Part shown: one piece after another, positions 14,271 through 50,197 of the stretch
Numbering within the stretch: the stretch's first letter is position 1
Layout of the letters: each line of letters starts with the position of its first letter
Source: Wickerhamiella versatilis
Lineage: Eukaryota
Assembly (NCBI GenBank): GCA_030867685.1
Contig: JAQOWU010000008.1
Coordinates: 3,906,001-3,970,000 of the forward strand
Length of the DNA: 64,000 nucleotides
Reading direction: 5' to 3'
Program-made: the position numbers and the translations under genes
Notes under the pieces: model-generated
What the model was told of the DNA's origin: nothing
Database searches by the model: none
Seen by the model: only the letters and a program-made list of their open reading frames with translations

Positions 14271-15407
14271 TTAAGCTGAGACCTCTTCCAGGTTCTCATT
14301 AATTCTTTGTGGGCCTGGTCCTACGCGACTAAGTATGACCCGCTGGATTCCCTCTCGCATTATATCATCGAATGGTGTTTCATGCGTAGCTTTTATAGTG
14401 CTTGGGAGGCCTGGAACTCCAGCAAGCATACCTAGGCCTTGCAAAACTTGGTGTTCATTCTCTGCCAAGTAGTAGACTACACAATTTGGACCAGCATCAA
14501 ATGTATAAGCAGCCACAAGCTTGCCTGCTCGTTCGTTAATTGTTTCCACAACTCGAACCGCAGCGCGCGACGTGTCGTTCATGTAGAAAATAGGGGGGTC
14601 ACTGTCAAGGCATACCGCATGGAACTGATTTGAATCCTGCATGGTGAGTTTTGCGAACGAAGGGAAGTCTCGGTTTTCAATCGCTGTCTTCATTTCATCA
14701 AATCTTTTTGGTACAACTTCGTTGATTCGGTACTTGAATAGAGATGAAGTATTCACAGTCACTTGCATGCCAGCAGTGCTTGAAACTGCCTTTTTTGATG
14801 CACTAGCTACGAGAATAGCTGCTCGCATCTCCGGCCAGTGCTGTAGTGGTGCAATTTCAACGGCCCTAGAATCTTTTCCGTCGGTGCGAGATCCCATATC
14901 CCAGGCCACATAACCACCAAAAAGAGATCTACAGGCAGACCCAGATCCCTGGCGGGCAAGAACGGATAGGTCTGAGGCCGAGTGAGGCAGTTCATAAAGT
15001 TCTGCCACAGCCTTCACCAATGCTGCAAACCCAGCAGCCGATGAAGCAAGTCCTGCGGCAGTGGGGAAATTATTTTCAGACACGATCTGCAGCTTGAAAG
15101 GTGATATTTTTGGCTTCTTGGGATCAGACTCCTCCAATCGATGACGCGCCAGGCGCAGCTCATCAATAACAGTCCGGGTACGCGGTTTTGTGTCAACTTC
15201 CTCAGACTTTCCATTTAGCCAAAGCTCATCTCGAACGTAATGCGGTGAAGCTCTGGCTGTAGTTGTCGCTCGCAAATCGTCTTGTGAGAGTGTTACTGAA
15301 ATCGAGGAATTCGTGGGTAGATTAAGTTTTGCATCTCGCTTACCCCAATACTTAAGCGTAGCTATGTTCACCGGAGCTGTGGCGGTAGCCACAAATTGTG
15401 ATGACAT
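14271..15407 (-). CDS. MVD1: Diphosphomevalonate decarboxylase
   Basis: APVNIATLKYWGKRD, NNFPTAAGLASSAAG, GSGSACRSLFGG and YTFDAGPN GHMP motifs. Confidence 0.97.
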   Translation of the reverse strand: MSSQFVATATAPVNIATLKYWGKRDAKLNLPTNSSISVTLSQDDLRATTTARASPHYVRDELWLNGKSEEVDTKPRTRTVIDELRLARHRLEESDPKKPKISPFKLQIVSENNFPTAAGLASSAAGFAALVKAVAELYELPHSASDLSVLARQGSGSACRSLFGGYVAWDMGSRTDGKDSRAVEIAPLQHWPEMRAAILVASASKKAVSSTAGMQVTVNTSSLFKYRINEVVPKRFDEMKTAIENRDFPSFAKLTMQDSNQFHAVCLDSDPPIFYMNDTSRAAVRVVETINERAGKLVAAYTFDAGPNCVVYYLAENEHQVLQGLGMLAGVPGLPSTIKATHETPFDDIMREGIQRVILSRVGPGPQRINENLEEVSA

Positions 15408-17637: not shown

Positions 17638-18597
17638 ATGCTCTTGCGACCACAGCTAATCTTCAAACGGTTCAACTCGAGTTTGCCCGAAAAATTTTTG
17701 AATGGTTTGCCTAAAGGTATACAGCCCTATGCACGTCTTTCTCGCATCGAAAAGCCGGTAGGTACCTGGTTGCTCTATTCGCCATGTACGTGGTCCATAA
17801 CTTTAGCAGCCACAGCCACAGGTGCACCGCTTAGTACCACCGCGTGGTATTTGGCATTATTTGGCATAGGAAGCTTCCTAACCAGAGGTGCTGGTTGCAC
17901 AATAAATGACATATGGGATCGTCATCTTGATGCCAGGGTCGAGCGCACTAAAACCCGTCCCTTGGCTGCACGCGATGTTTCGGTACCTCAGGCTGTCGGG
18001 TGGCTTGGATTGCAAGGAACTGCAGCTCTGGCTGTGCTCTTTTCCTTACCCCCAACCTGTTGGTCGTTAACGGCAGCGAGTATCATCCCGCTTCTTGTAT
18101 ACCCGCTTTTCAAGCGCTTTACGAATTATCCACAAGCATGGCTCGCAATATGGTTCAGCTATGGTGCTTTTCTTGGGTTTCCTGCAATGGGATTGCAGAA
18201 TTATTGGGCCATGTTTTCGATGTTGGGCTCGGCTGCTTCTTGGTGCATGATTTACGACACTATATATGGCCATCAGGACAAAAAATTCGACATACAGGTC
18301 GGTATGAAATCCACAGCTATAAAGTGGGCTGATAGAACGTTGCCGATCGCAAGACGCTTCTTTTTTGCTCAGTATTCATTGCTCGCCGCCTCGACAATTT
18401 TCGCCGGTGGGGTCGGGCCTGGGATTCTAGTTGGTGGAACCTTCGCCGCTATCAGGCAATGGAATATGATGAGCAAAGTGAATATTGACGATCCGAACAC
18501 CTGTGGTAATTTCTTCTTGAAAAACGTCCTCAATGGTCATATCATAACAGTGGGGTTTTTTGTCGATTACATTCTGAAACTTCTAGGTTACTTGTAA
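17638..18597 (+). CDS. COQ2: 4-hydroxybenzoate polyprenyltransferase
   Basis: UbiA family motifs RGAGCTINDIWDRHLD, RTKTRPLA, YDTIYGHQDK; N-terminal mitochondrial-type presequence. Confidence 0.95.
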   Translation: MLLRPQLIFKRFNSSLPEKFLNGLPKGIQPYARLSRIEKPVGTWLLYSPCTWSITLAATATGAPLSTTAWYLALFGIGSFLTRGAGCTINDIWDRHLDARVERTKTRPLAARDVSVPQAVGWLGLQGTAALAVLFSLPPTCWSLTAASIIPLLVYPLFKRFTNYPQAWLAIWFSYGAFLGFPAMGLQNYWAMFSMLGSAASWCMIYDTIYGHQDKKFDIQVGMKSTAIKWADRTLPIARRFFFAQYSLLAASTIFAGGVGPGILVGGTFAAIRQWNMMSKVNIDDPNTCGNFFLKNVLNGHIITVGFFVDYILKLLGYL

Positions 18598-24095: not shown

Positions 24096-25325
24096 ATGAG
24101 TACAGCAAGAGTCCTACGGTCGTGTGTTCCACTTCAAGACCACAAAGGGGTTTTGGCGAGCCCTCACACCCATGGAAGGCACACGAACCAATTCATTGTG
24201 GAAAAGGTGATTGGAAGACAGAAAAGCAGCGACTATGGTAGCGATGAAAGCTTTTTTGTGGCCGATTTTGGCAATGTCCGACGCCAGTTGGCACGATGGT
24301 GGAAATGCCTGCCGTCAGTCCAACCTTACTACGCTGTCAAATGTAACAATGATCCTAATTTACTAAAACTGCTGGCAGAAAGTGGTGTTAACTTTGACTG
24401 TGCGTCGCGCAACGAAATTGAAGCCATCCTAGGGATGGAAGTTTCTCCAGAACGCATTGTATATGCCAATACCGTGAAAAATCCAGGTTACTTGCGGTAC
24501 AGCGTCGAAAAGGATGTGCGTCTTATGACTTTTGATAATAGCTCTGAGCTTGAAAAAATCGCTATCTGCGCACCCAAATCTCGTCTTCTCCTCCGGATTG
24601 CTACTGATGATAGTGGTGCCAGCTGTCAATTGAGTCTTAAATTTGGTGCTGCAATGGATTCTGCACTTAGTCTTCTCGAGAAGGCACGGGAACACCACCT
24701 GGATGTTGTAGGCGTGGCCTTCCATATCGGCAGCGGCGGCGGCGCAGCAATTGATGCTTTCAGGCGTGCTCTAGTGGATACACGTCGTATATTCCAGCTA
24801 GGTGCCAGCCTAGGATATGACATGCAGATTGTAGACATTGGCGGAGGATTCGAAAGTGCCACATTTGAAGATGCGGCAAGTCAGATCAACCAAACTTTCA
24901 GTGATCTTTGCTTCCCTCAGTCCACCAGGCTCATTGCTGAGCCAGGTCGCTTTTTTGCCGCAGATGCTTATACCTTGGTCGCAAGCGTAATAGGCCAACG
25001 TAGGGCCGACGACGGAACGCAAATGGTATACTTGACTGACGGGGTCTATGGTAATTTGAATTGTATTATTTTTGACCATCAGAGTCCCGCAGTCCACCCG
25101 CTATATGCCAATGGGGACCCACGTAGTCGCCCACCAACCGAGATCTCACTTTGGGGTCCGACATGTGACGGCATAGATATTGTACATAACGGTATCCACG
25201 TACCTCACGCCCTCGAAATCGGAGATTGGGTTTATTTTCCCGCTGTCGGTGCATATACGTTGTCTGCATCATCAGCATTCAACGGGTTCTGCATGGACAC
25301 GCAAATATATTATGCCGACTCATAG
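24096..25325 (+). CDS. SPE1: Ornithine decarboxylase
   Basis: PYYAVKCN (PLP lysine), FDCAS, DIGGGF, IAEPGRFF, WGPTCDGID, GAYT motifs. Confidence 0.94.
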   Translation: MSTARVLRSCVPLQDHKGVLASPHTHGRHTNQFIVEKVIGRQKSSDYGSDESFFVADFGNVRRQLARWWKCLPSVQPYYAVKCNNDPNLLKLLAESGVNFDCASRNEIEAILGMEVSPERIVYANTVKNPGYLRYSVEKDVRLMTFDNSSELEKIAICAPKSRLLLRIATDDSGASCQLSLKFGAAMDSALSLLEKAREHHLDVVGVAFHIGSGGGAAIDAFRRALVDTRRIFQLGASLGYDMQIVDIGGGFESATFEDAASQINQTFSDLCFPQSTRLIAEPGRFFAADAYTLVASVIGQRRADDGTQMVYLTDGVYGNLNCIIFDHQSPAVHPLYANGDPRSRPPTEISLWGPTCDGIDIVHNGIHVPHALEIGDWVYFPAVGAYTLSASSAFNGFCMDTQIYYADS

Positions 25326-28972: not shown

Positions 28973-29145
28973 GCCAAACCTCTAGGTATCGAACCTGGTG
29001 TTTCCAGGACTAGGATTGGCGTATGAACAGGGCGACCTCTGGATATCAAGAGGTGGCATTTACAGGGCAAACTCTGGTATCGAGAGCTGGCATTTACAGG
29101 GCAAACTCTGGTATCAAGAGCTGGCGATTCCAGGGCAAGGATCGT
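28973..29145. repeat. Degenerate ~34-bp tandem repeat array upstream of the HO-like gene
   Basis: Units at 29028-29062, 29063-29096 and 29097-29130 (consensus CAGGGCAAACTCTGGTATCAAGAGCTGGCATTTA), a partial unit from 29131, and a more diverged copy at about 28973-29020. Confidence 0.85.
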
Positions 29146-29367: not shown

Positions 29368-32268
29368 ATGCGTCCAGGTCAATCCTCGATCGTAGATTTC
29401 TTTAACCGAAAGCGGCACGAAAGATCGCAGGGCTCGCAGATTGCAACGGAGAGCCAGGAACGGTCCGCCCCACACCCCCGCGTCAATGCTGAACCTGAAT
29501 CAATAACCCTGCATCGCGGGGAGGAAAATCAGCCAAATATTGAGCCTGACTCTGAGCCTGAATTTGAGCTTGGCTCCGACATCGACTTGGAGGGGCTTGA
29601 TTCAGACGACGATTTGCTTGAGGAGGATCCGGATTCTGAATCTGAATCCGAATCTGAGGCTGAAGCCGCTGTAAAGCGGACTGGAGACCTATTCGAGCAC
29701 AATATGGTTCATGATTATTTTGAGCCGGTCCATAAGTGTCCTGGCATTGAGGAGCACGAGCAAGTGCGTCTTGCATCCGGTGGAACTAAGATGGTCCGGG
29801 ATGTGGTGGCGGGAGATTACCTGCTGGACCGGATGGGGAGACCCAAGCGTGTCACGAAGGTCACGCGTGCTACAGGCGAAGGCTATGAAATCACGAGGAA
29901 AAGCACCGCGCAGACCCTCGACATCTATGCGCGTCAAAAGGTTATTGTGGGTGCCCAGCAGCTTCTTGAGGTCTCGGTAAACCAGACAAATTTGCAGTCG
30001 CAGCTGCTGGTCGATAAGGTGACCGAGGGGAAGGTGGGTGTACAATACCGCGAGCTGGTTGAGGAAACATTGGTGGAGAACGGCACCCACCGCAGGATCC
30101 TCAAAGCTCGAGAAACGTCCGCGGGAACATCCTATGCGAATCCGCCCAAACCACGCATCACTATGGCGACTAAGGAGGAGGCCGAGGACGATGCGAGGGC
30201 CAAAGCACAGGAGAAAGTACCCAGGAACAACGACGGGGTTCCAGAGCCTTACATTCGGTGGTACGCTGAGGCACGAGACATGGTCAACTACCAAACACCA
30301 CCCCCTTCGAATGAGGATTCTCGTGTTGCGGCAAATGTGGTCGCGCTCAATTTAGGAGTTAGGGTGCGTGACGGCATCGAAGTTCCAACGGGAGTGGTGG
30401 CACAATCGGTCGGGACGTGTCCTGAGCGCGAAGCATTTGAGAAAGCGGCCCGCCGCTTATCGCTGAGCCAGCTGGAGATTTTTTGGTACCTTGCTGGTGC
30501 ATGGGTCGGTGATGGATCCATGAAAGCACCTTTGATTCATGTGGATTCCGTTGACGGGGAGTCCATGAGGCGTTTTGCGGAAGATGCGGCGGCGCTGGGG
30601 CTCTATTGCGACGTCGAATATCGTTATCTCACAGATGAAGAGCTCATGGAGTGGGGCGTCCAAGACAAGAAAGGAGTGAATATTCACTTGGCCGGCCCCA
30701 CTGGGATCGCCGATGGAGAGTGGGAGAAAGTTGATCAGCTACTACAGTACACAACTAACAGGGCAAACCAGGCGAAAGAATGGAGGAACGAGTGGAATAA
30801 GCACCAAACGCGGCTCAAAGAGCAAGGAATGCCAGAATTGGAATATAAACCCAACCCGTTCTCACGTGGGGCAGCCAACGTCTACATATTCAACGGGTAC
30901 CACCAAGAAAAACGGGTTCTCACGGAGAACAACTGGTTATGGGTGTTGTTTTGCAAAGCCCATATAAGAGGAATTGGCCGTAAAGATGGGAGAAGAATCT
31001 GTACCAAGACTTGCCCAGAGTGGCTGGTCACGTCTCCTATCGAATGGCGTGAAGCCTTCCTAGCAGGACTCACAGAGAGTGATGGTAGTAAAAGTAAAGT
31101 GAAAAAAGTATACAGCATTTGCACAATCTATCCAGAACTCTGTGACCGTGTCGTGGCTGTCGCACGATCCCTGGGCATTAAAACAGGTGTTCTTCCTACC
31201 ATGTCAAAAGGACATCTCACGTTCGGTAAAGGGCGTCAGCTCGCATATACTGTACGGCTTTCTGGTGGCGAGTCACTTCGCAGAACCATGTCACGCGTAG
31301 CGCTAACCCGCAAAAAGCCCGATGCCAGGTGGCCGGTGGAGCCCGAGTGGAGCCTCACATCAGGCAATGCTAGGTTCGCTGCAACCCCTTTGCACAAAGA
31401 GTTTTCATTCGTACTTATTGAGATTGAAGGGCATGAATTTGCCTTGGACAATGGACTGGTGAGCCTGGAGGCCCACGCGAGCGGTCACTTCACAGAAACA
31501 GGGTGGCCTGCGTGTTCAGCGAAACCGATACCGGTAGAAGGGAAGGAGGGGTGCATCGCTTGCCACACTACAGATACACCAAAATGGCGTCCTAGCTGGG
31601 ATTTCCGTGAAGGCAGGCTCTGCAACGCGTGCGGCAAGAAATTTGCTAACGTGAATGTGCACTGCACGGTATGTAAGTTTATTCCAGGAACCCCCAAATG
31701 GAAATCGTTACAGTCCTTGGCCAAAAGGAATGACAGCGGGGACCTTGCCTATCCCTGCCCCAACTGCAGTAAGGGCAAAAGCGAGCAATTCACAATTGTG
31801 CGGAGCGACCAGAAAGAGGCCCATAAATGCCTTTCTTGCCATACCACTGAGGCTGAACGCTGGTTCCCCAGCTGGTCGCTCAAGGAGGGTATGGTATGTC
31901 CCGGATGCTATAAAAGGCTTGTGTCTTTTAAGGCGTATTGCGAGAAATGCAAGTTGGTGCCGCACCTTGAGGACCATACGAAGCTAGTGCCCGATAGCGA
32001 GGGATACAAGAAATTCCCATGTCGTAGATGCGCGACACCCATAGCGGTGCGCGTCGATGCATGCTGCTTGTGCGGTAACTGTAAACCCAAGAAAATGACG
32101 AGAAACCTGGCGTTCGACGGCAAAATATGCCAGAAGTGCAATTATCGTCTACAGAAAGTGGGTGGTGTCTACTGCAAAACCTGCAAATACGTGCCGCTAC
32201 CAAGTGAGTTCTCCCGCGATCCTCAGTTCAAAGCAACGTCAACATGCCAGAAATGTCGTGATATTTAG
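29368..32268 (+). CDS. HO/WHO-like intein-derived LAGLIDADG endonuclease with N-terminal PIP box and three Ash1-like zinc-finger modules
   Basis: Hint-N-like block from aa126 (GIEEHEQVRLASGGTKMVRDVVAGDYLLDRMGRPKRV); LAGLIDADG motifs YLAGAWVGDGS (~30487) and AFLAGLTESDGS (~31054); Hint-C-like HEFALDNGLVS; 12 CxxC pairs in three repeats. Confidence 0.85.
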   Translation: MRPGQSSIVDFFNRKRHERSQGSQIATESQERSAPHPRVNAEPESITLHRGEENQPNIEPDSEPEFELGSDIDLEGLDSDDDLLEEDPDSESESESEAEAAVKRTGDLFEHNMVHDYFEPVHKCPGIEEHEQVRLASGGTKMVRDVVAGDYLLDRMGRPKRVTKVTRATGEGYEITRKSTAQTLDIYARQKVIVGAQQLLEVSVNQTNLQSQLLVDKVTEGKVGVQYRELVEETLVENGTHRRILKARETSAGTSYANPPKPRITMATKEEAEDDARAKAQEKVPRNNDGVPEPYIRWYAEARDMVNYQTPPPSNEDSRVAANVVALNLGVRVRDGIEVPTGVVAQSVGTCPEREAFEKAARRLSLSQLEIFWYLAGAWVGDGSMKAPLIHVDSVDGESMRRFAEDAAALGLYCDVEYRYLTDEELMEWGVQDKKGVNIHLAGPTGIADGEWEKVDQLLQYTTNRANQAKEWRNEWNKHQTRLKEQGMPELEYKPNPFSRGAANVYIFNGYHQEKRVLTENNWLWVLFCKAHIRGIGRKDGRRICTKTCPEWLVTSPIEWREAFLAGLTESDGSKSKVKKVYSICTIYPELCDRVVAVARSLGIKTGVLPTMSKGHLTFGKGRQLAYTVRLSGGESLRRTMSRVALTRKKPDARWPVEPEWSLTSGNARFAATPLHKEFSFVLIEIEGHEFALDNGLVSLEAHASGHFTETGWPACSAKPIPVEGKEGCIACHTTDTPKWRPSWDFREGRLCNACGKKFANVNVHCTVCKFIPGTPKWKSLQSLAKRNDSGDLAYPCPNCSKGKSEQFTIVRSDQKEAHKCLSCHTTEAERWFPSWSLKEGMVCPGCYKRLVSFKAYCEKCKLVPHLEDHTKLVPDSEGYKKFPCRRCATPIAVRVDACCLCGNCKPKKMTRNLAFDGKICQKCNYRLQKVGGVYCKTCKYVPLPSEFSRDPQFKATSTCQKCRDI

Positions 32269-34180: not shown

Positions 34181-34887
34181 TATCGAGAGGTATTGCCGAA
34201 AAAAACCTGCGGATTAGAATGAGTGTAGTGGAGTGTAGTGTAGTTTAGTGTTTTTTTATCGATTACATCATCGTTGATAAGTACGATGATGCAGAGCAAG
34301 GCTGCTGGTCGACATCTGGCGATCACGCAATCTCGAGCATATTTAACTCATTTAAACAGTAATTTTTAACCGATGCTGTCGAAAGAGCGCTTTTATTCTA
34401 GTGGATGCAGGTGCTCGGGCGAGTTGCATACCAGTGACTGAATGGGCATAACCTAACCCCCAAGGCATCATCATGTTACATGATGTGAGAAGTATGATCC
34501 GGCCGGAAAGGAAGAAATCCGCTCGAGCTTTGGTTAACCGAGCTCGGATGGGCGACAGGCAGCGGGCGGCTTATCTCCATCTGAGACCTGATAATGCAAC
34601 CAGACCTGCCTCTTAGGGCCCAGACCTAACCCAGTTGTTACAAAGACGCCCGGATTTTCGTCACGTAAAGCCGTGAAAGCTTAAACTGGAGGTGGCCTGC
34701 GGGTTTAGAGTAAGCCAGGCTCAGCCAGTTGGGCCCACCGGTAAAAAAAATTAAATACTATGTTGGAGCGCAGCAGCGCCTCTAATGTTAATTTACAGTG
34801 TAAATAGGTGGGCCAGCGTCCGAATAAGATAACATGTTTTGGGGCCGGCACAACAGCCGGCAGCGGCCGGCCCGGCGGGTTCGGCGT

Positions 34888-34923
34888 GGTTAGCGGGGTC
34901 AGCGAGGTCAGCGAGGTCAGCGG
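34888..34923. repeat. 4 x 9-bp tandem repeat (GGTCAGCGR)
   Basis: ggttagcgg ggtcagcga ggtcagcga ggtcagcgg, upstream of MTR2. Confidence 0.8.
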
Positions 34924-34971: not shown

Positions 34972-35403
34972 ATGGCCACGCTTCCCCCTCACCTCTTGGA
35001 TGTTACCAGTGGCGAGGCTAAGCGGTTCAGCGAGGGCCTGTTCAGGCTTATCGATGCCCGGCGGGATCTTCCCATGGTGACTCCCGAGACAACCGCGGTA
35101 TGGAACGGAACGCCGCTGGCCGGCCACGATCCGTTGGTCCAATTTTTGATGGCCATGCCACCCACCCAGCATGAAATCACGGGATACAATGTGCTGCCGC
35201 TCCCGAACGGCAACGAGTCGGCGCTTAATATGATGGTGGACACCTCAGGCCGGGTCCAGTTTGGCACCGAGCGGGGCCAGAACGTGTTTGCCTTCTCGTC
35301 CCAGTTTATTGTTCGGCGACTGGGGGAGGGTGCACCGTGCCTGCTGCAGACAATGGTATATAGACTGGTGCATAAACCGCATGATGCTACGATACTTACA
35401 TAG
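34972..35403 (+). CDS. MTR2: NTF2-like mRNA export factor Mtr2/Nxt1
   Basis: VWNGTP, TQHEITGYNVLPLP, SGRVQFG, FAFSSQF, YRLVHKP pattern typical of fungal Mtr2/Nxt1; ATG at 34972. Confidence 0.72.
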   Translation: MATLPPHLLDVTSGEAKRFSEGLFRLIDARRDLPMVTPETTAVWNGTPLAGHDPLVQFLMAMPPTQHEITGYNVLPLPNGNESALNMMVDTSGRVQFGTERGQNVFAFSSQFIVRRLGEGAPCLLQTMVYRLVHKPHDATILT

Positions 35404-36738: not shown

Positions 36739-37539
36739 ATGACGACTGATCGGAGGGAGTACCGCCGGAATGATTGGATTATTTCTACGAATAAAGCGCC
36801 TATACTAGATGCAGAGCGGATTGATAAAACTGAGGCTGAACTGCAGATCCCATTACCCGAGATGATTTTTGGAGATAACCAAGTTACGCTTCACCACGTG
36901 CCAACAAACTGGACGTTTACCGTGGACGCAATCTCAGCTTTAGGCCTTGTGGATAAACATGATGCTCACCTAAAGGTCGCACACGCAGATAGCTGGCACC
37001 AGAAACGACATAAGCACATTAATGGCTACGACCTGACCCGGGTGCATCGTCCGTTCGACTGGACATATTCCACCACCTTCAGGGGCAACGGCAATTTCAG
37101 TGACGCACCAGAGTCTGAAAGAATTCCTTTCGACAAGCTCAAACAACCCCTTCCCATCCTCTTTTTTGACGAGGTTCCCCTTTACGAGGACGAACTCGGC
37201 GACAACGGTTTAGTGACGTATTCGGCAAAGATCCGGGTTATGCCTGGCGACTTGTTGCTTCTTGTTCGCCTTTTTCTGAAGGTCGACGATGTTATATTTC
37301 GGATTCGCGACACCAGGGTCTACGTTGACCTGGAGAACGGGAAAGTGATTCGGGAGTATACCGAAAGAGAGGCATCGTTTGCGTCTGTCAAGGCAAAAGT
37401 GCCCGTGACGGTCTCTGACTACACGCAGCTACTCCGGGACCCCAATTGGATCTGCTCTGCATTACCATTAAAATCTTATGAAAGCTCTATTAAGCTACTG
37501 ACGACCCCATCTACATCTACATCTACATCTACGACCTAA
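36739..37539 (+). CDS. TIP41: PP2A regulator Tip41 (TIPRL)
   Basis: PLPEMIFGDN, PFDWTYST, LYEDELGDNG, KIRVMP, RIRDTRVY motifs; ATG at 36739. Confidence 0.93.
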   Translation: MTTDRREYRRNDWIISTNKAPILDAERIDKTEAELQIPLPEMIFGDNQVTLHHVPTNWTFTVDAISALGLVDKHDAHLKVAHADSWHQKRHKHINGYDLTRVHRPFDWTYSTTFRGNGNFSDAPESERIPFDKLKQPLPILFFDEVPLYEDELGDNGLVTYSAKIRVMPGDLLLLVRLFLKVDDVIFRIRDTRVYVDLENGKVIREYTEREASFASVKAKVPVTVSDYTQLLRDPNWICSALPLKSYESSIKLLTTPSTSTSTSTT

Positions 37540-46670: not shown

Positions 46671-47849
46671 ATGAGTATTAACATTCGTCGCGACAATCAT
46701 GATCCTTTTTACCGATATAAGATGCCTCCAATAGCCTCGAAGATCGAAGGCAGGGGTAATGGTATCAAGACAGCAGTGGTCAACCTGAGTGACGTTGCTC
46801 GGGCGCTGGCACGCCCGTCTACGTACATCATTAAGTGGTTCGGTTTTGAGTTGGGTGCTCAAACCAGCGCTAGTGAGGAGACTGACCGATATATTGTAAA
46901 TGGTGCACATGATGCCGGCAAACTGCAAGACTCTCTCGACGGCTTTATCAACAAGTTTGTGCTTTGTGGCAACTGCAAAAACCCGGAGACAGATTTTGTA
47001 TTCCACCGCGATGGTACAGTAGAGAAAGATTGCAAGGCATGCGGTGCAAAATCTTTGGTTGACCCAAGGCACAAACTCACTGGGTTCATTGCGAAGAATC
47101 CCCCTCAGGCAACAAAGCAAAAAAAGAAGCCCATGGCCAATGCAGGTGCATCCACGGGATACGATGATGCCGATGGTGCTGATGAAGGAAAAATGCAGGC
47201 TAGCGGTGAGGATGAACTAACCCGACGAATCAATGCCGAAGCGGCAAATCTTCCCGCCATGGCTGCACATACCAGTAAAGAAGACGAATGGTCTGCAGAT
47301 GTGAGTGAGGAAGCTGTGAAAGCTCGCCAAAAGAAGCTTGAGAAGACAATGGGTGCACTTGGGCTTGACGATACCACGAGTGATGAGGTCTACGATGAAT
47401 TTGGAACCTGGATCATATCTGAGAAGCCAAGTGACATAGAAATTTACAAGCGCGCCGTTGAGCTTGGTATTTCTGACAAGCCGAAGGCAGTGCAAGTGTT
47501 AGCCCAGGCTCTTTTCACCACAGAGATCGTCAAGGAAATTGCCGAGCATGCAGGCTTGCTCAGCAAGATGGTCAGTTCCGAGGAGCATGAGCGGGCGCTT
47601 CTGGGTGGATTCGAGCGCTTTGTAGGTCTTGAGCACCCACAACTTATTGCACAGGTACCCAACATACTTTTCAAACTGTACGAGGGAGACATTATCTCTG
47701 AGGAGGTCGTAGAGCACTGGGGTACCCATGTATCTAAGAAGTATGTGGACAAGGATACGTGTAAAAAGGTTCGTAAGGCGGCTAAACCATTCATCGAATG
47801 GCTCGCCCAGGCGGATTCGTCCGAAGAGGAGGAAGAGGATAGTGAATAG
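46671..47849 (+). CDS. TIF5: Translation initiation factor eIF5
   Basis: DPFYRYKMP..KIEGRGNGIKT, zinc ribbon C..CKNPET...CKACG, C-terminal W2 domain (PFIEWL). Confidence 0.97.
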   Translation: MSINIRRDNHDPFYRYKMPPIASKIEGRGNGIKTAVVNLSDVARALARPSTYIIKWFGFELGAQTSASEETDRYIVNGAHDAGKLQDSLDGFINKFVLCGNCKNPETDFVFHRDGTVEKDCKACGAKSLVDPRHKLTGFIAKNPPQATKQKKKPMANAGASTGYDDADGADEGKMQASGEDELTRRINAEAANLPAMAAHTSKEDEWSADVSEEAVKARQKKLEKTMGALGLDDTTSDEVYDEFGTWIISEKPSDIEIYKRAVELGISDKPKAVQVLAQALFTTEIVKEIAEHAGLLSKMVSSEEHERALLGGFERFVGLEHPQLIAQVPNILFKLYEGDIISEEVVEHWGTHVSKKYVDKDTCKKVRKAAKPFIEWLAQADSSEEEEEDSE

Positions 47850-47926: not shown

Positions 47927-50197
47927 TTACTGACTGGCTAAGCCCGCGTCCTCAGGCATTAGCACATGTAGAAGTCCAACCTCCTCAAGGAGTCGTTTAT
48001 GGTTCGGAACAACGGCACCAGGTTGTAACAACACCATACGGATTTTGTTGATAGCGACATGGCGTTCCAGACTAGTATCTGGAAGCCCCACGGTTAGTAG
48101 TCGATACAAAAACATTGGTCCGTGGGCAGGGTCTTGGAGTACTTGCTCTAGCGCTGGAGGCACTGCATCCGAAGTTGGTTCAAGCAAAGTGTTCAAAAGC
48201 AACCTACCAGCGGCAGGATCTACTTTGTTCGTGATCACCTTCAAAACCGTAAGGCCTGCCAACTTCGAAATGCACATCTGGCTTAGATGAGGCACTAATT
48301 GGGCGGCAACAAGCCCCCAGCGTTGAGGACCCGCTAAAGGATAAGTATCAAGGAGCCATGTAACGAGAAGAACACCGTTAGGATTAACAGCCAGCTGTGG
48401 GGTATGGTGAATGATCGCTGCCGCGACAAGCCGCTGGTGCTGCTTGGTCGTGTGTGGACTCTCAAGACATGTACGAACCGCTCGTGCACCGAATCTCCCG
48501 GCAGCAATTTCCGGCAGATGCGTAGCGCACGCCTCGAACACCCAGTCATTCCAGGGAGCACCAAAACGAAGGCAGCCTTGGATGACGTAGTTGCCAAACT
48601 GGTCCAGAAGAAGACCGACCGTGTAAGGCTGCAACGCCTTAGTGATCATAGAAAACTGCCGCTTGGTATTCGCAACTCCAATCACCTTTTGTGTTGCCCA
48701 TGTGCCATTCTTATGGGTACCGGTATAGGCAAGGACCGGCATCAGAGCCCGCGTCATCATGTCCTTGATATCCTCTGAGCAGCGTTCAAAAAGTTGCTGA
48801 ACCACGGTATTCCCGATATAATCGGAGGCGAGTTGGGGTAGTTCACTCATGGCATCCAAAGCCAGCTCCTCCAGCTCTTTTGGCCCTATAGCACCCATAT
48901 CAATCCTTTTCCGAGTCTCCCTCAGGATACCACTACCATAAACACGTTCCTGAGTGGGCTCCTGGGGTCCGATTATTTCTTCTGTAACAATAAAATCCTC
49001 GCCACGCTTGAGCGCAGCCATAGAAGATGCAACCTCGACAGGCGATACCTCTAAGCTTTGCAGGATATATGCTATACCAGAGGATGGTGGCGACCCAGGG
49101 CTTGTCGTCTTCAGGGGTGGCGTAAGGCTGCCTTCATTAGGCTTTACAAGCTTGACAACGCTGGGACCGAGGCCGGCAAAAAGCTCTGTTCCGTTCCTAG
49201 CTGCTTGCGCAGCAGCCGCACTTGAAGGTTCCTGGAAGGTCACGACTCCGCAATGTTTTAGAGCATAAACCCGGGATGCTTCTATGCGGCCGAAAACGCC
49301 AAATACAGCCTGTAGCGTGTATTCCGTGATATTATGGGGCACATTCGAGATCCAAATCGTATTCGTTCTTAAGGCAGAAGGATCCTCTGTAACCACAGGT
49401 GGCCCATTCGGTAATTCATGCATAGGTTGACGTTGCTTCCCGAGAACGCCTAGTGGAAGATTATTTGTAGCTGTGGGTACATTTGATAACGTTTGAGCCC
49501 GCGGACGAGCCCAGTTCAATGGCGAAGGTGCAGCCATATGACCTAGGTGATTAACGGACAATTTTGACGCAACGGGCGGTACACCTGCTGCAGCAGAGCT
49601 AGCTGGCGGAGCGCCCGGTGCTGCGGACCCTACGGGCATTACTGGCTTGTCATATGCTGCTGGAGACGTCAACGTGTAAGAGCGCAAACGGCTGGGTTCC
49701 GAGCTCTTCTGTAACTCAATATTATAAAATCGCATAGGATCTTGGTCATCGATTGTCTCCGGCCCAACGGACGAGGCGGGCGAGAGTGAGCTGGCACCTG
49801 CAGAACTACTGGACCATATGCTATTTGAAGGCATAAATGGTCCAGCAGCCAGCGAATTCAGCGACCCACTGCGTACCCGAGCTGAGTTTGGCCTCATTAA
49901 GTTGTCCACAGTGCCCCTTCCCGGAAGGAATGGGCGCCTGGGTGGGGAATGATTATCCCATAGCACATCGTTGCCGTCCGGCGACAACAGCGCGAGGGAG
50001 CCTAACTGGTCGGGGGGATTTGTAGGAGTTTGTGTATTGATCGCTGGCATACGTGAGGGGAGAGTACCTGCTCGAGCCCGCCGAGACGGCATTTGATGCT
50101 GGACCGCTGGCCACCTGTCAGACCAAATAGAGAGTCCAGGTGGCGTTTTAGTCCCGGCCTGCCGGGTTGCAAAGTCCTCAGGATCTAGTGCCGGCAT
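47927..50197 (-). CDS. JSN1: Pumilio-family RNA-binding protein with RRM (Jsn1/Puf1-Puf2 class)
   Basis: RRARAGTLPS, RRM (TIWISNVP...CGVVTF), Puf repeats (DYIGNTVVQQLFE, HKNGTWATQK, DQFGNYVIQGCL, RFGARAVRTCLE). Confidence 0.85.
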   Translation of the reverse strand: MPALDPEDFATRQAGTKTPPGLSIWSDRWPAVQHQMPSRRARAGTLPSRMPAINTQTPTNPPDQLGSLALLSPDGNDVLWDNHSPPRRPFLPGRGTVDNLMRPNSARVRSGSLNSLAAGPFMPSNSIWSSSSAGASSLSPASSVGPETIDDQDPMRFYNIELQKSSEPSRLRSYTLTSPAAYDKPVMPVGSAAPGAPPASSAAAGVPPVASKLSVNHLGHMAAPSPLNWARPRAQTLSNVPTATNNLPLGVLGKQRQPMHELPNGPPVVTEDPSALRTNTIWISNVPHNITEYTLQAVFGVFGRIEASRVYALKHCGVVTFQEPSSAAAAQAARNGTELFAGLGPSVVKLVKPNEGSLTPPLKTTSPGSPPSSGIAYILQSLEVSPVEVASSMAALKRGEDFIVTEEIIGPQEPTQERVYGSGILRETRKRIDMGAIGPKELEELALDAMSELPQLASDYIGNTVVQQLFERCSEDIKDMMTRALMPVLAYTGTHKNGTWATQKVIGVANTKRQFSMITKALQPYTVGLLLDQFGNYVIQGCLRFGAPWNDWVFEACATHLPEIAAGRFGARAVRTCLESPHTTKQHQRLVAAAIIHHTPQLAVNPNGVLLVTWLLDTYPLAGPQRWGLVAAQLVPHLSQMCISKLAGLTVLKVITNKVDPAAGRLLLNTLLEPTSDAVPPALEQVLQDPAHGPMFLYRLLTVGLPDTSLERHVAINKIRMVLLQPGAVVPNHKRLLEEVGLLHVLMPEDAGLASQ

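Follow-up and report, generated by a model that had tools for sequence, protein, structure and literature searches.

How does a single gene come to encode an intein-type homing endonuclease followed by the DNA-binding fingers of a transcription factor, and did the nuclease enter the transcription factor gene or capture a part of it? This question is raised by an open reading frame (ORF) of 966 codons in a 64,000-nucleotide stretch of the Wickerhamiella versatilis genome (contig JAQOWU010000008.1, positions 3,906,001 to 3,970,000), which is called the window below and whose numbering is used throughout. Its product, P0001, consisted of an N-terminal extension, a Hint/LAGLIDADG body related to VDE (PI-SceI, the VMA1 intein), and a tail of three zinc-finger modules related to the C-terminal domain of Ash1, and the ORF was located between a SPE1-like and an MTR2-like gene. 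We consider it fairly probable that P0001 is the ASH1 of this lineage, into which a VDE-type intein was inserted close to the 5' end, with splicing lost afterwards.

HO holds a central place in yeast biology, and how it arose is a long-standing debate. Coughlan et al. (2020, PMC7282813) stated that HO and WHO were the sole intein-zinc-finger fusions known and that their fingers were most like those of Ash1, at most 38% over 76 residues. Their model, in which a mis-homing VDE entered a zinc-finger gene close to its 5' end, that gene being "possibly a paralog of ASH1", was inferred with no living example. In a 2026 preprint from the same laboratory (10.64898/2026.08.13.744650), the architecture was still given as confined to HO/WHO, and our literature search, by which subscription journals were mostly not covered, found no intein-Ash1 fusion beyond these two. 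The Ash1 likeness of the HO/WHO fingers and the mis-homing model are therefore published already, and no earlier report of the P0001 family was found. The parts of the ORF to which the following analysis refers are these:

29368..32268, + strand: whole ORF of P0001, 966 codons, with N-terminal extension, Hint/LAGLIDADG body and three zinc-finger modules
29368..29736, + strand: N-terminal extension, residues 1-123, acidic and predicted to be disordered (predicted local distance difference test score, pLDDT, <30 for residues 1-125)
29737..30432, + strand: N-terminal Hint half and adjoining region, residues 124-355, starting at Cys124, the intein first-Cys position
30433..31332, + strand: LAGLIDADG endonuclease core, residues 356-655 (Pfam Hom_end, E 4e-20)
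30484-30519, + strand: first LAGLIDADG motif, residues 373-384
31054-31089, + strand: second LAGLIDADG motif, residues 563-574
31345..31467, + strand: C-terminal Hint strands, about residues 660-700 (predicted strands 668-686 and 691-693), ending without the terminal His-Asn and nucleophile
31552..31773, + strand: module 1 (M1), residues 729-802, an Ash1-type GATA finger with a second C4 unit
31828..32037, + strand: module 2 (M2), residues 821-890, matched by the Ash1-only profile and by M1 (scores below)
32062..32259, + strand: module 3 (M3), residues 899-964, the most diverged, with the four Cys pairs kept and the Trp-containing motif lost

Relatives of P0001 were obtained by comparing the tail (residues 715-966) with 1.84 billion representatives in a full HMMER scan, which gave 154 matches at E<=1e-3, the best 150 of which were listed, and two further relatives came from a search with the body. 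The whole architecture was common to eight full-length proteins (P0001, P0002, P0152, P0005, P0006, P0153, P0148, and P0009) with 30-61% identity to P0001; in the seven further representatives, of 896-1685 residues, it was likewise kept in one ORF. The family has at least eight members, which are diverged. To these were added P0004, an N-truncated member of 703 residues, and P0003, a tail fragment. Word-indexed searches with the tail (715-966), the body (120-714), and the core (520-660 at E<=1) returned matches from the P0001 family only. Three modules were present in P0001, P0002, P0152, and P0005, two in P0009 and P0148, five in P0006 (1182 residues), six in P0004, and eleven in P0153 (1685 residues), showing that the array was expanded or contracted to 2-11 modules in other relatives. 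Modules 7-9 of P0153 were 84% identical to the stand-alone fragment P0008, so gene prediction may have joined a neighbouring gene to P0153 as its distal half. A further protein, P0007 (584 residues), carried six Ash1-type modules behind a 96-residue N-terminus, had no nuclease region, and was 36% identical to the P0153 tail; it could be an "empty" uninvaded orthologue, a paralogue, or a mis-predicted gene.

The tail of P0001 is rich in cysteine, 27 of the 35 in the protein being located in the final 267 residues, and all 13 CxxC motifs fell within residues 729-963, with none before residue 729. The initial annotation of this DNA had described three repeats with four CxxC pairs each, and its strings were recovered exactly at nucleotides 31552, 31828, and 32065; the start of M3 was moved to 32062, because the conserved first Cys pair in the orthologue alignment was C899/C902. 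The modules were compared with a module profile seeded with the first modules of the relatives. M1 scored 114 bits, a value that is circular because the M1 of P0001 itself sat in the seed, M2, which was outside the seed, scored 49.8 bits (independent E value 2e-15), and M3 scored 10.4 bits (independent E value 4.5e-3). Profile-profile comparison (hhalign) of modules built from four orthologues, in which the Cys-rich composition may inflate the scores, related M1 to M2 (probability 99.2%, E 1.7e-19, 74 columns), M2 to M3 (96.8%, E 2.4e-10, 67 columns), and M1 to M3 (95.1%, E 3.4e-8, 50 columns). No DNA-level repeats between the modules were found beyond a single 15-nt pair, which implied that the repeats were old.

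The history of the array was examined by a tree of modules (75 columns, quick IQ-TREE search). Of 192 extracted modules it contained 111, every fourth of the 108 typical single Ash1 modules being kept and 81 rows dropped. The first, second, and third modules of P0001, P0002, P0152, P0005, and P0003 grouped by position, with support of 95, 90, and 96, respectively. This grouping implied that the triplication predated the split of these five proteins. As judged from the profile comparisons and the tree, the tail is a true triplication, in agreement with what had been proposed for it.

M1 was clearly of the Ash1 type rather than a generic GATA finger, as judged by its sequence. Against an Ash1-only profile, built from 115 single-module Ash1-type C-termini with the nuclease family excluded (77 positions), M1 scored 57.6 bits over positions 1-76 and M2 22.2 bits over positions 1-56, and M3 was not significant at -1.3 bits. 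These values bore out two earlier proposals, that the first repeat follows the Ash1 C-terminus and that the repeats are increasingly diverged. At the level of profiles, M3 is recognisable solely via M2. The Pfam GATA model reached 25.9 bits on M1, below its cut-off of 26.8, and did not match M2 or M3, while the Ash1-type protein P0015 was aligned by tblastn to M1 (41% identity, 75 residues, E 1e-12) and to M2 (40% identity, 47 residues, E 4e-5). When 138 proteins outside the nuclease family and its multi-module kin were compared with the module profile, the whole four-pair module was aligned in 94 of them (45-66 bits, the spurious C2H2 match P0020 being among these) and a part of it in 34. The remaining 10, generic GATA proteins, matched the GATA half only (positions 1-37, 10-21 bits). 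Proteins with a full-length match were about 130-790 residues long and ended in a single module with a characteristic Trp-Arg-Pro-Ser-Trp motif. The nearest Atlas cluster to P0079 was "Transcriptional regulatory protein ASH1" (score 0.93, 379 members, Ascomycota); the Atlas search with the tail gave unnamed, uninformative clusters with a best score of 0.80. The tree also split the four-pair modules from generic GATA fingers (support 95 in the Shimodaira-Hasegawa-like approximate likelihood ratio test, SH-aLRT).

The loop between Cys pairs was 19 residues long in M1 and M2 and 18 in M3, but its length separated the module types poorly, being 19 in 105 of 125 single-module matches and also in 3 of 10 generic GATA matches. 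The tail was modelled with a pLDDT of 86.2, and M3 with about 90. A fold search of this model found nothing at E<=0.001, the best match being the double finger of GATA3 (E 4e-3), and the AreA finger was superimposed with a template modelling (TM) score of 0.68 over 35 columns. The modelled fold is thus a weak match, consistent with the GATA fold. No confident match to the second C4 unit was found in this fold search.

The position of the ORF also pointed to ASH1. A Pfam scan of 32 window ORFs, each of >=143 residues, identified the neighbouring genes:

24096..25325, + strand: SPE1-like ornithine decarboxylase gene (Pfam Orn_Arg_deC_N, E 2.8e-70), 4 kb 5' of the ORF
between the SPE1-like gene and the ORF, in this order: inositol-polyphosphate kinase gene and HlyIII/PAQR gene (Pfam)
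between the ORF and the MTR2-like gene: amino-acid transporter gene (Pfam)
34972..35403, + strand: MTR2-like gene (Pfam Mtr2, 35.9 bits against a cut-off of 23.7), 2.7 kb 3' of the ORF

In S. cerevisiae, SPE1 is YKL184W, ASH1 is YKL185W (PMC8137142), and MTR2 is YKL186C (PMC2839277), names that by the positional naming rule denote consecutive genes. The orientation of the ORF relative to the SPE1-like gene was that of ASH1 relative to SPE1. No second Ash1-like sequence was found in the 64 kb by tblastn with seven Ash1-type or multi-module proteins and P0001. The SPE1-like and MTR2-like flanks, together with the lack of another Ash1-like sequence in the window, made a positional orthologue of ASH1 with uptake of an intein the better reading. 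The initial annotation had named the case of the ORF being the only syntenic ASH1 of the species as contrary to capture and as pointing to an ASH1 invaded by an intein: the syntenic slot was indeed found, and the absence of another copy held within the 64 kb.

The body of P0001 was most similar to PI-SceI in sequence and in fold. Among solved structures, PI-SceI/VDE chains were the best relatives by sequence, E being 4e-16 with P0001 by itself as query and 4e-26 with the family profile, and PI-SceI was ranked first by Foldseek (E 6e-20), followed by archaeal VMA inteins. The AlphaFold model used for this search, made from an 8-sequence alignment, had a mean pLDDT of 59, with 70-90 in the nuclease core. 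The N-terminal Hint half aligned with PI-SceI residues 7-105; Pfam Hom_end_hint was matched at residues 132-249 with 24.1 bits, below its cut-off of 32.1, and, in its N-terminal Hint part, the family profile also matched the Prp8 intein (E 0.0013). In addition to Hom_end, LAGLIDADG_3 was reported by Pfam. Residues D382, D393, K547, D572, T586, and K649 aligned with D218, D229, K301, D326, T341, and K403 of PI-SceI, which we take to form its active site.

Protein splicing by inteins depends on a first Cys or Ser, a block B Thr-x-x-His, and a terminal His-Asn with a following Cys, Ser, or Thr. The first-residue position was Cys in five and Ser in three of the eight relatives, and the block B His position was Asn in P0001. 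The C-terminal His-Asn and nucleophile were absent from all eight in the alignment. With the block B His replaced and the terminal His-Asn missing, protein splicing is not expected. The predicted fold of the body is VDE-like and complete; splicing should not occur, but DNA may well be cut, and the nuclease is probably active, as its residues suggest.

The conservation of the body bears on whether it still has a function. Six of the eight relatives, at 42-59% body identity to P0001, retained every one of the six active-site equivalents along with the two LAGLIDADG motifs. In P0009, both LAGLIDADG Asp residues and D393 were lost while the ORF and the fingers remained intact, and in P0153 the second LAGLIDADG Asp was lost while the long ORF and the fingers remained intact. 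The retention of an ORF and fingers by these nuclease-dead proteins suggests a second, nuclease-independent role, which from the sequences may be Ash1-like DNA binding beside the nuclease. Between P0001 and P0002, the fingers (M1 77%, M2 73%, M3 67% identity) were better preserved than the nuclease body (59.5%). This difference and the losses in P0009 and P0153 would also fit a protein that is in essence an Ash1-like transcription factor, whose body of intein descent is tolerated, has no function and does not cleave DNA. We regard this as very unlikely, for the body was predicted to be well folded and PI-SceI-like, and retention of the active site at 42-59% identity would be unexpected for about 580 unconstrained residues.

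The direction in which the two parts were joined was judged from the N-terminal extension, the modules, and the locus together. The initial annotation had proposed that the nuclease captured a DNA-binding domain of a host transcription factor; the location of the ORF between the SPE1-like and MTR2-like genes implied that the direction was probably the reverse. If a free-standing, VDE-derived nuclease gene had acquired its DNA-binding end from ASH1 or a paralogue and triplicated it, an ordinary ASH1 would be expected to persist elsewhere. This would account for an N-terminal extension with no Ash1 similarity, for modules that lie outside the main Ash1 clade and have CxxC as the third pair, and for the existence of a nuclease-free multi-module protein (P0007), and a paralogue of ASH1 also figures in the published model (PMC7282813). 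The ORF, however, occupied the ASH1 slot, and its chance landing among the 4 genes of this interval would, by our own estimate for a genome of 5,000-6,000 genes, have a probability of the order of 1e-3; no further Ash1-like sequence was present in the interval or in the 64-kb window. Capture by a free nuclease is therefore probably the less likely of the two, and we regard it as unlikely.

Several observations weigh against the invasion of ASH1 by an intein. The synteny consisted of two flanking markers only, with three unrelated genes interposed, and the MTR2-like gene was inverted relative to S. cerevisiae; a canonical ASH1 may also lie elsewhere in the genome, the search having been limited to the window. 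The N-terminal extension, which was kept across all eight relatives and whose short basic motif at about residues 14-25 was kept in six of them, matched no N-terminus of an Ash1-type protein (best E 0.26), so that descent of the 5' part from ASH1 is an assumption. In the tree, the family modules were placed in an unresolved polytomy outside the main clade of single-module Ash1 proteins, and 57 of the 108 inner branches had support <80. The third Cys pair was Cx4C in most Ash1-type matches versus CxxC in all three modules of P0001; CxxC was also observed in a minority of single-module matches, such as P0091, P0098, and P0131. P0007 could belong to a paralogous gene family of its own instead of being an "empty" allele. 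The active-site role of the six PI-SceI residues is our assumption, and cleavage and DNA binding by P0001 are predictions.

If ASH1 was indeed invaded, a VDE-type intein would have inserted near its 5' end at the SPE1-MTR2 slot and then lost the ability to splice; the finger module was, according to the tree, duplicated in tandem before the five closest relatives split. The finger array and the DNA-recognition surface of the nuclease itself may jointly select a long, rare DNA site, which the LAGLIDADG centre would cleave as in HO; we infer this HO-like action from the retention of every PI-SceI-aligned active-site residue. Ash1-like DNA binding would be an additional or alternative role for which the nuclease is not needed. 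It is conceivable, although doubtful, that the P0001 family is the surviving descendant of the mis-homing step, step 2 in the model of HO origin, and so the missing intermediate between VDE and HO/WHO. In that case the product of this step would still be at the ASH1 locus, with an N-terminal "extein" and complete Ash1-type modules; if the fusion arose independently, the same two partners were joined twice. With its extension, its complete modules, and its ASH1 position in the window, the family makes the model of HO origin testable by phylogeny, synteny, and cleavage assays. The natural series of 2-11 modules on a LAGLIDADG nuclease, nuclease-dead members included, also bears on the retargeting and domestication of homing endonucleases.

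Other features of the window were observed at or around the ORF. The N-terminal extension owes its acidic Ser/Glu/Asp run to short in-frame repeats of 12 and 6 nt at 29541-29657. A 34-bp tandem repeat (3.3 copies, 88% matches) at 29027-29138, 230-340 bp 5' of the ATG, may be a promoter element. Promoter motifs of the RCCAGC type, presumably Swi5/Ace2-like, occurred 4 times in the 1.1 kb upstream against about 1.5 per kb window-wide, which was not notable. Just 5' of the MTR2-like ORF, a 9-bp tandem repeat of 5.4 copies was located at 34873-34923. Farther away, genes for TIP41-like, eIF5-like, and PUF+RRM proteins formed a block (36739-37539, 46671-47849, and 47927-50197), and a mevalonate-diphosphate decarboxylase gene lay near a COQ2-like prenyltransferase gene (14271-15407 and 17638-18597). 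Both blocks recall S. cerevisiae neighbourhoods. The long ORFs of the window, free of introns, are in keeping with a budding yeast. No tRNA genes were present within the window as landmarks of insertion.

HO and WHO were compared with the P0001 family by their published description (PMC7282813). They share with P0001 a VDE-related, non-splicing, intein-like LAGLIDADG region, which is without the intein motif at its C-terminal end and is followed by C-terminal Cys-pair fingers nearest to Ash1, and HO requires its finger domain for cleavage of MAT. On this general architecture, an intein-like region without the C-terminal motif joined to an Ash1-like Cys-pair tail, P0001 might be taken for an ordinary member of HO/WHO, namely a transposed or horizontally acquired WHO-like gene with a longer tail. 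We hold this to be very unlikely. P0001 began with an extension of 123 residues and carried 12-13 CxxC motifs, arranged as three complete Ash1-type modules, whereas HO and WHO, as described, are free of exteins and have 3-5 CxxC motifs, and WHO was reported as restricted to a few Saccharomycetaceae genera. Nuclease homology was detected in six of the 150 listed tail matches, all six of them members of the family, and in none of the other 144 (best E 0.41), which implied that proteins of the HO/WHO type, with their style of intein body, were not among the listed relatives of the tail. The ORF was located at the ASH1-syntenic locus, neither 3' of FBA1 nor at a stand-alone HO locus, and no aldolase was found among the 32 scanned window ORFs. 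Unlike WHO, P0001 was single copy, with neither clustering nor duplicated target fragments seen in the window.

VDE/PI-SceI, the VMA1 intein, was the best match of the body in sequence and fold, with the same Hint domain split by a LAGLIDADG endonuclease and with the aligned active-site residues kept. P0001, by contrast, had neither a block B His nor a terminal His-Asn, its host was not VMA1, it carried zinc fingers, and it had long extra segments at residues 240-355 and 420-540. Compared with Ash1 (YKL185W), an atypical repressor of the GATA type that acts specifically in daughter cells and has a localised mRNA, P0001 had three tandem modules instead of one, a third Cys pair of CxxC instead of Cx4C, and about 580 Hint/LAGLIDADG residues inserted after residue 123, with no N-terminal similarity found. 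It shared with Ash1 the C-terminal location of the fingers, an M1 that aligned over the entire C-terminal domain, and the locus. By its placement between the SPE1-like and MTR2-like genes, P0001 would be a positional orthologue of ASH1.

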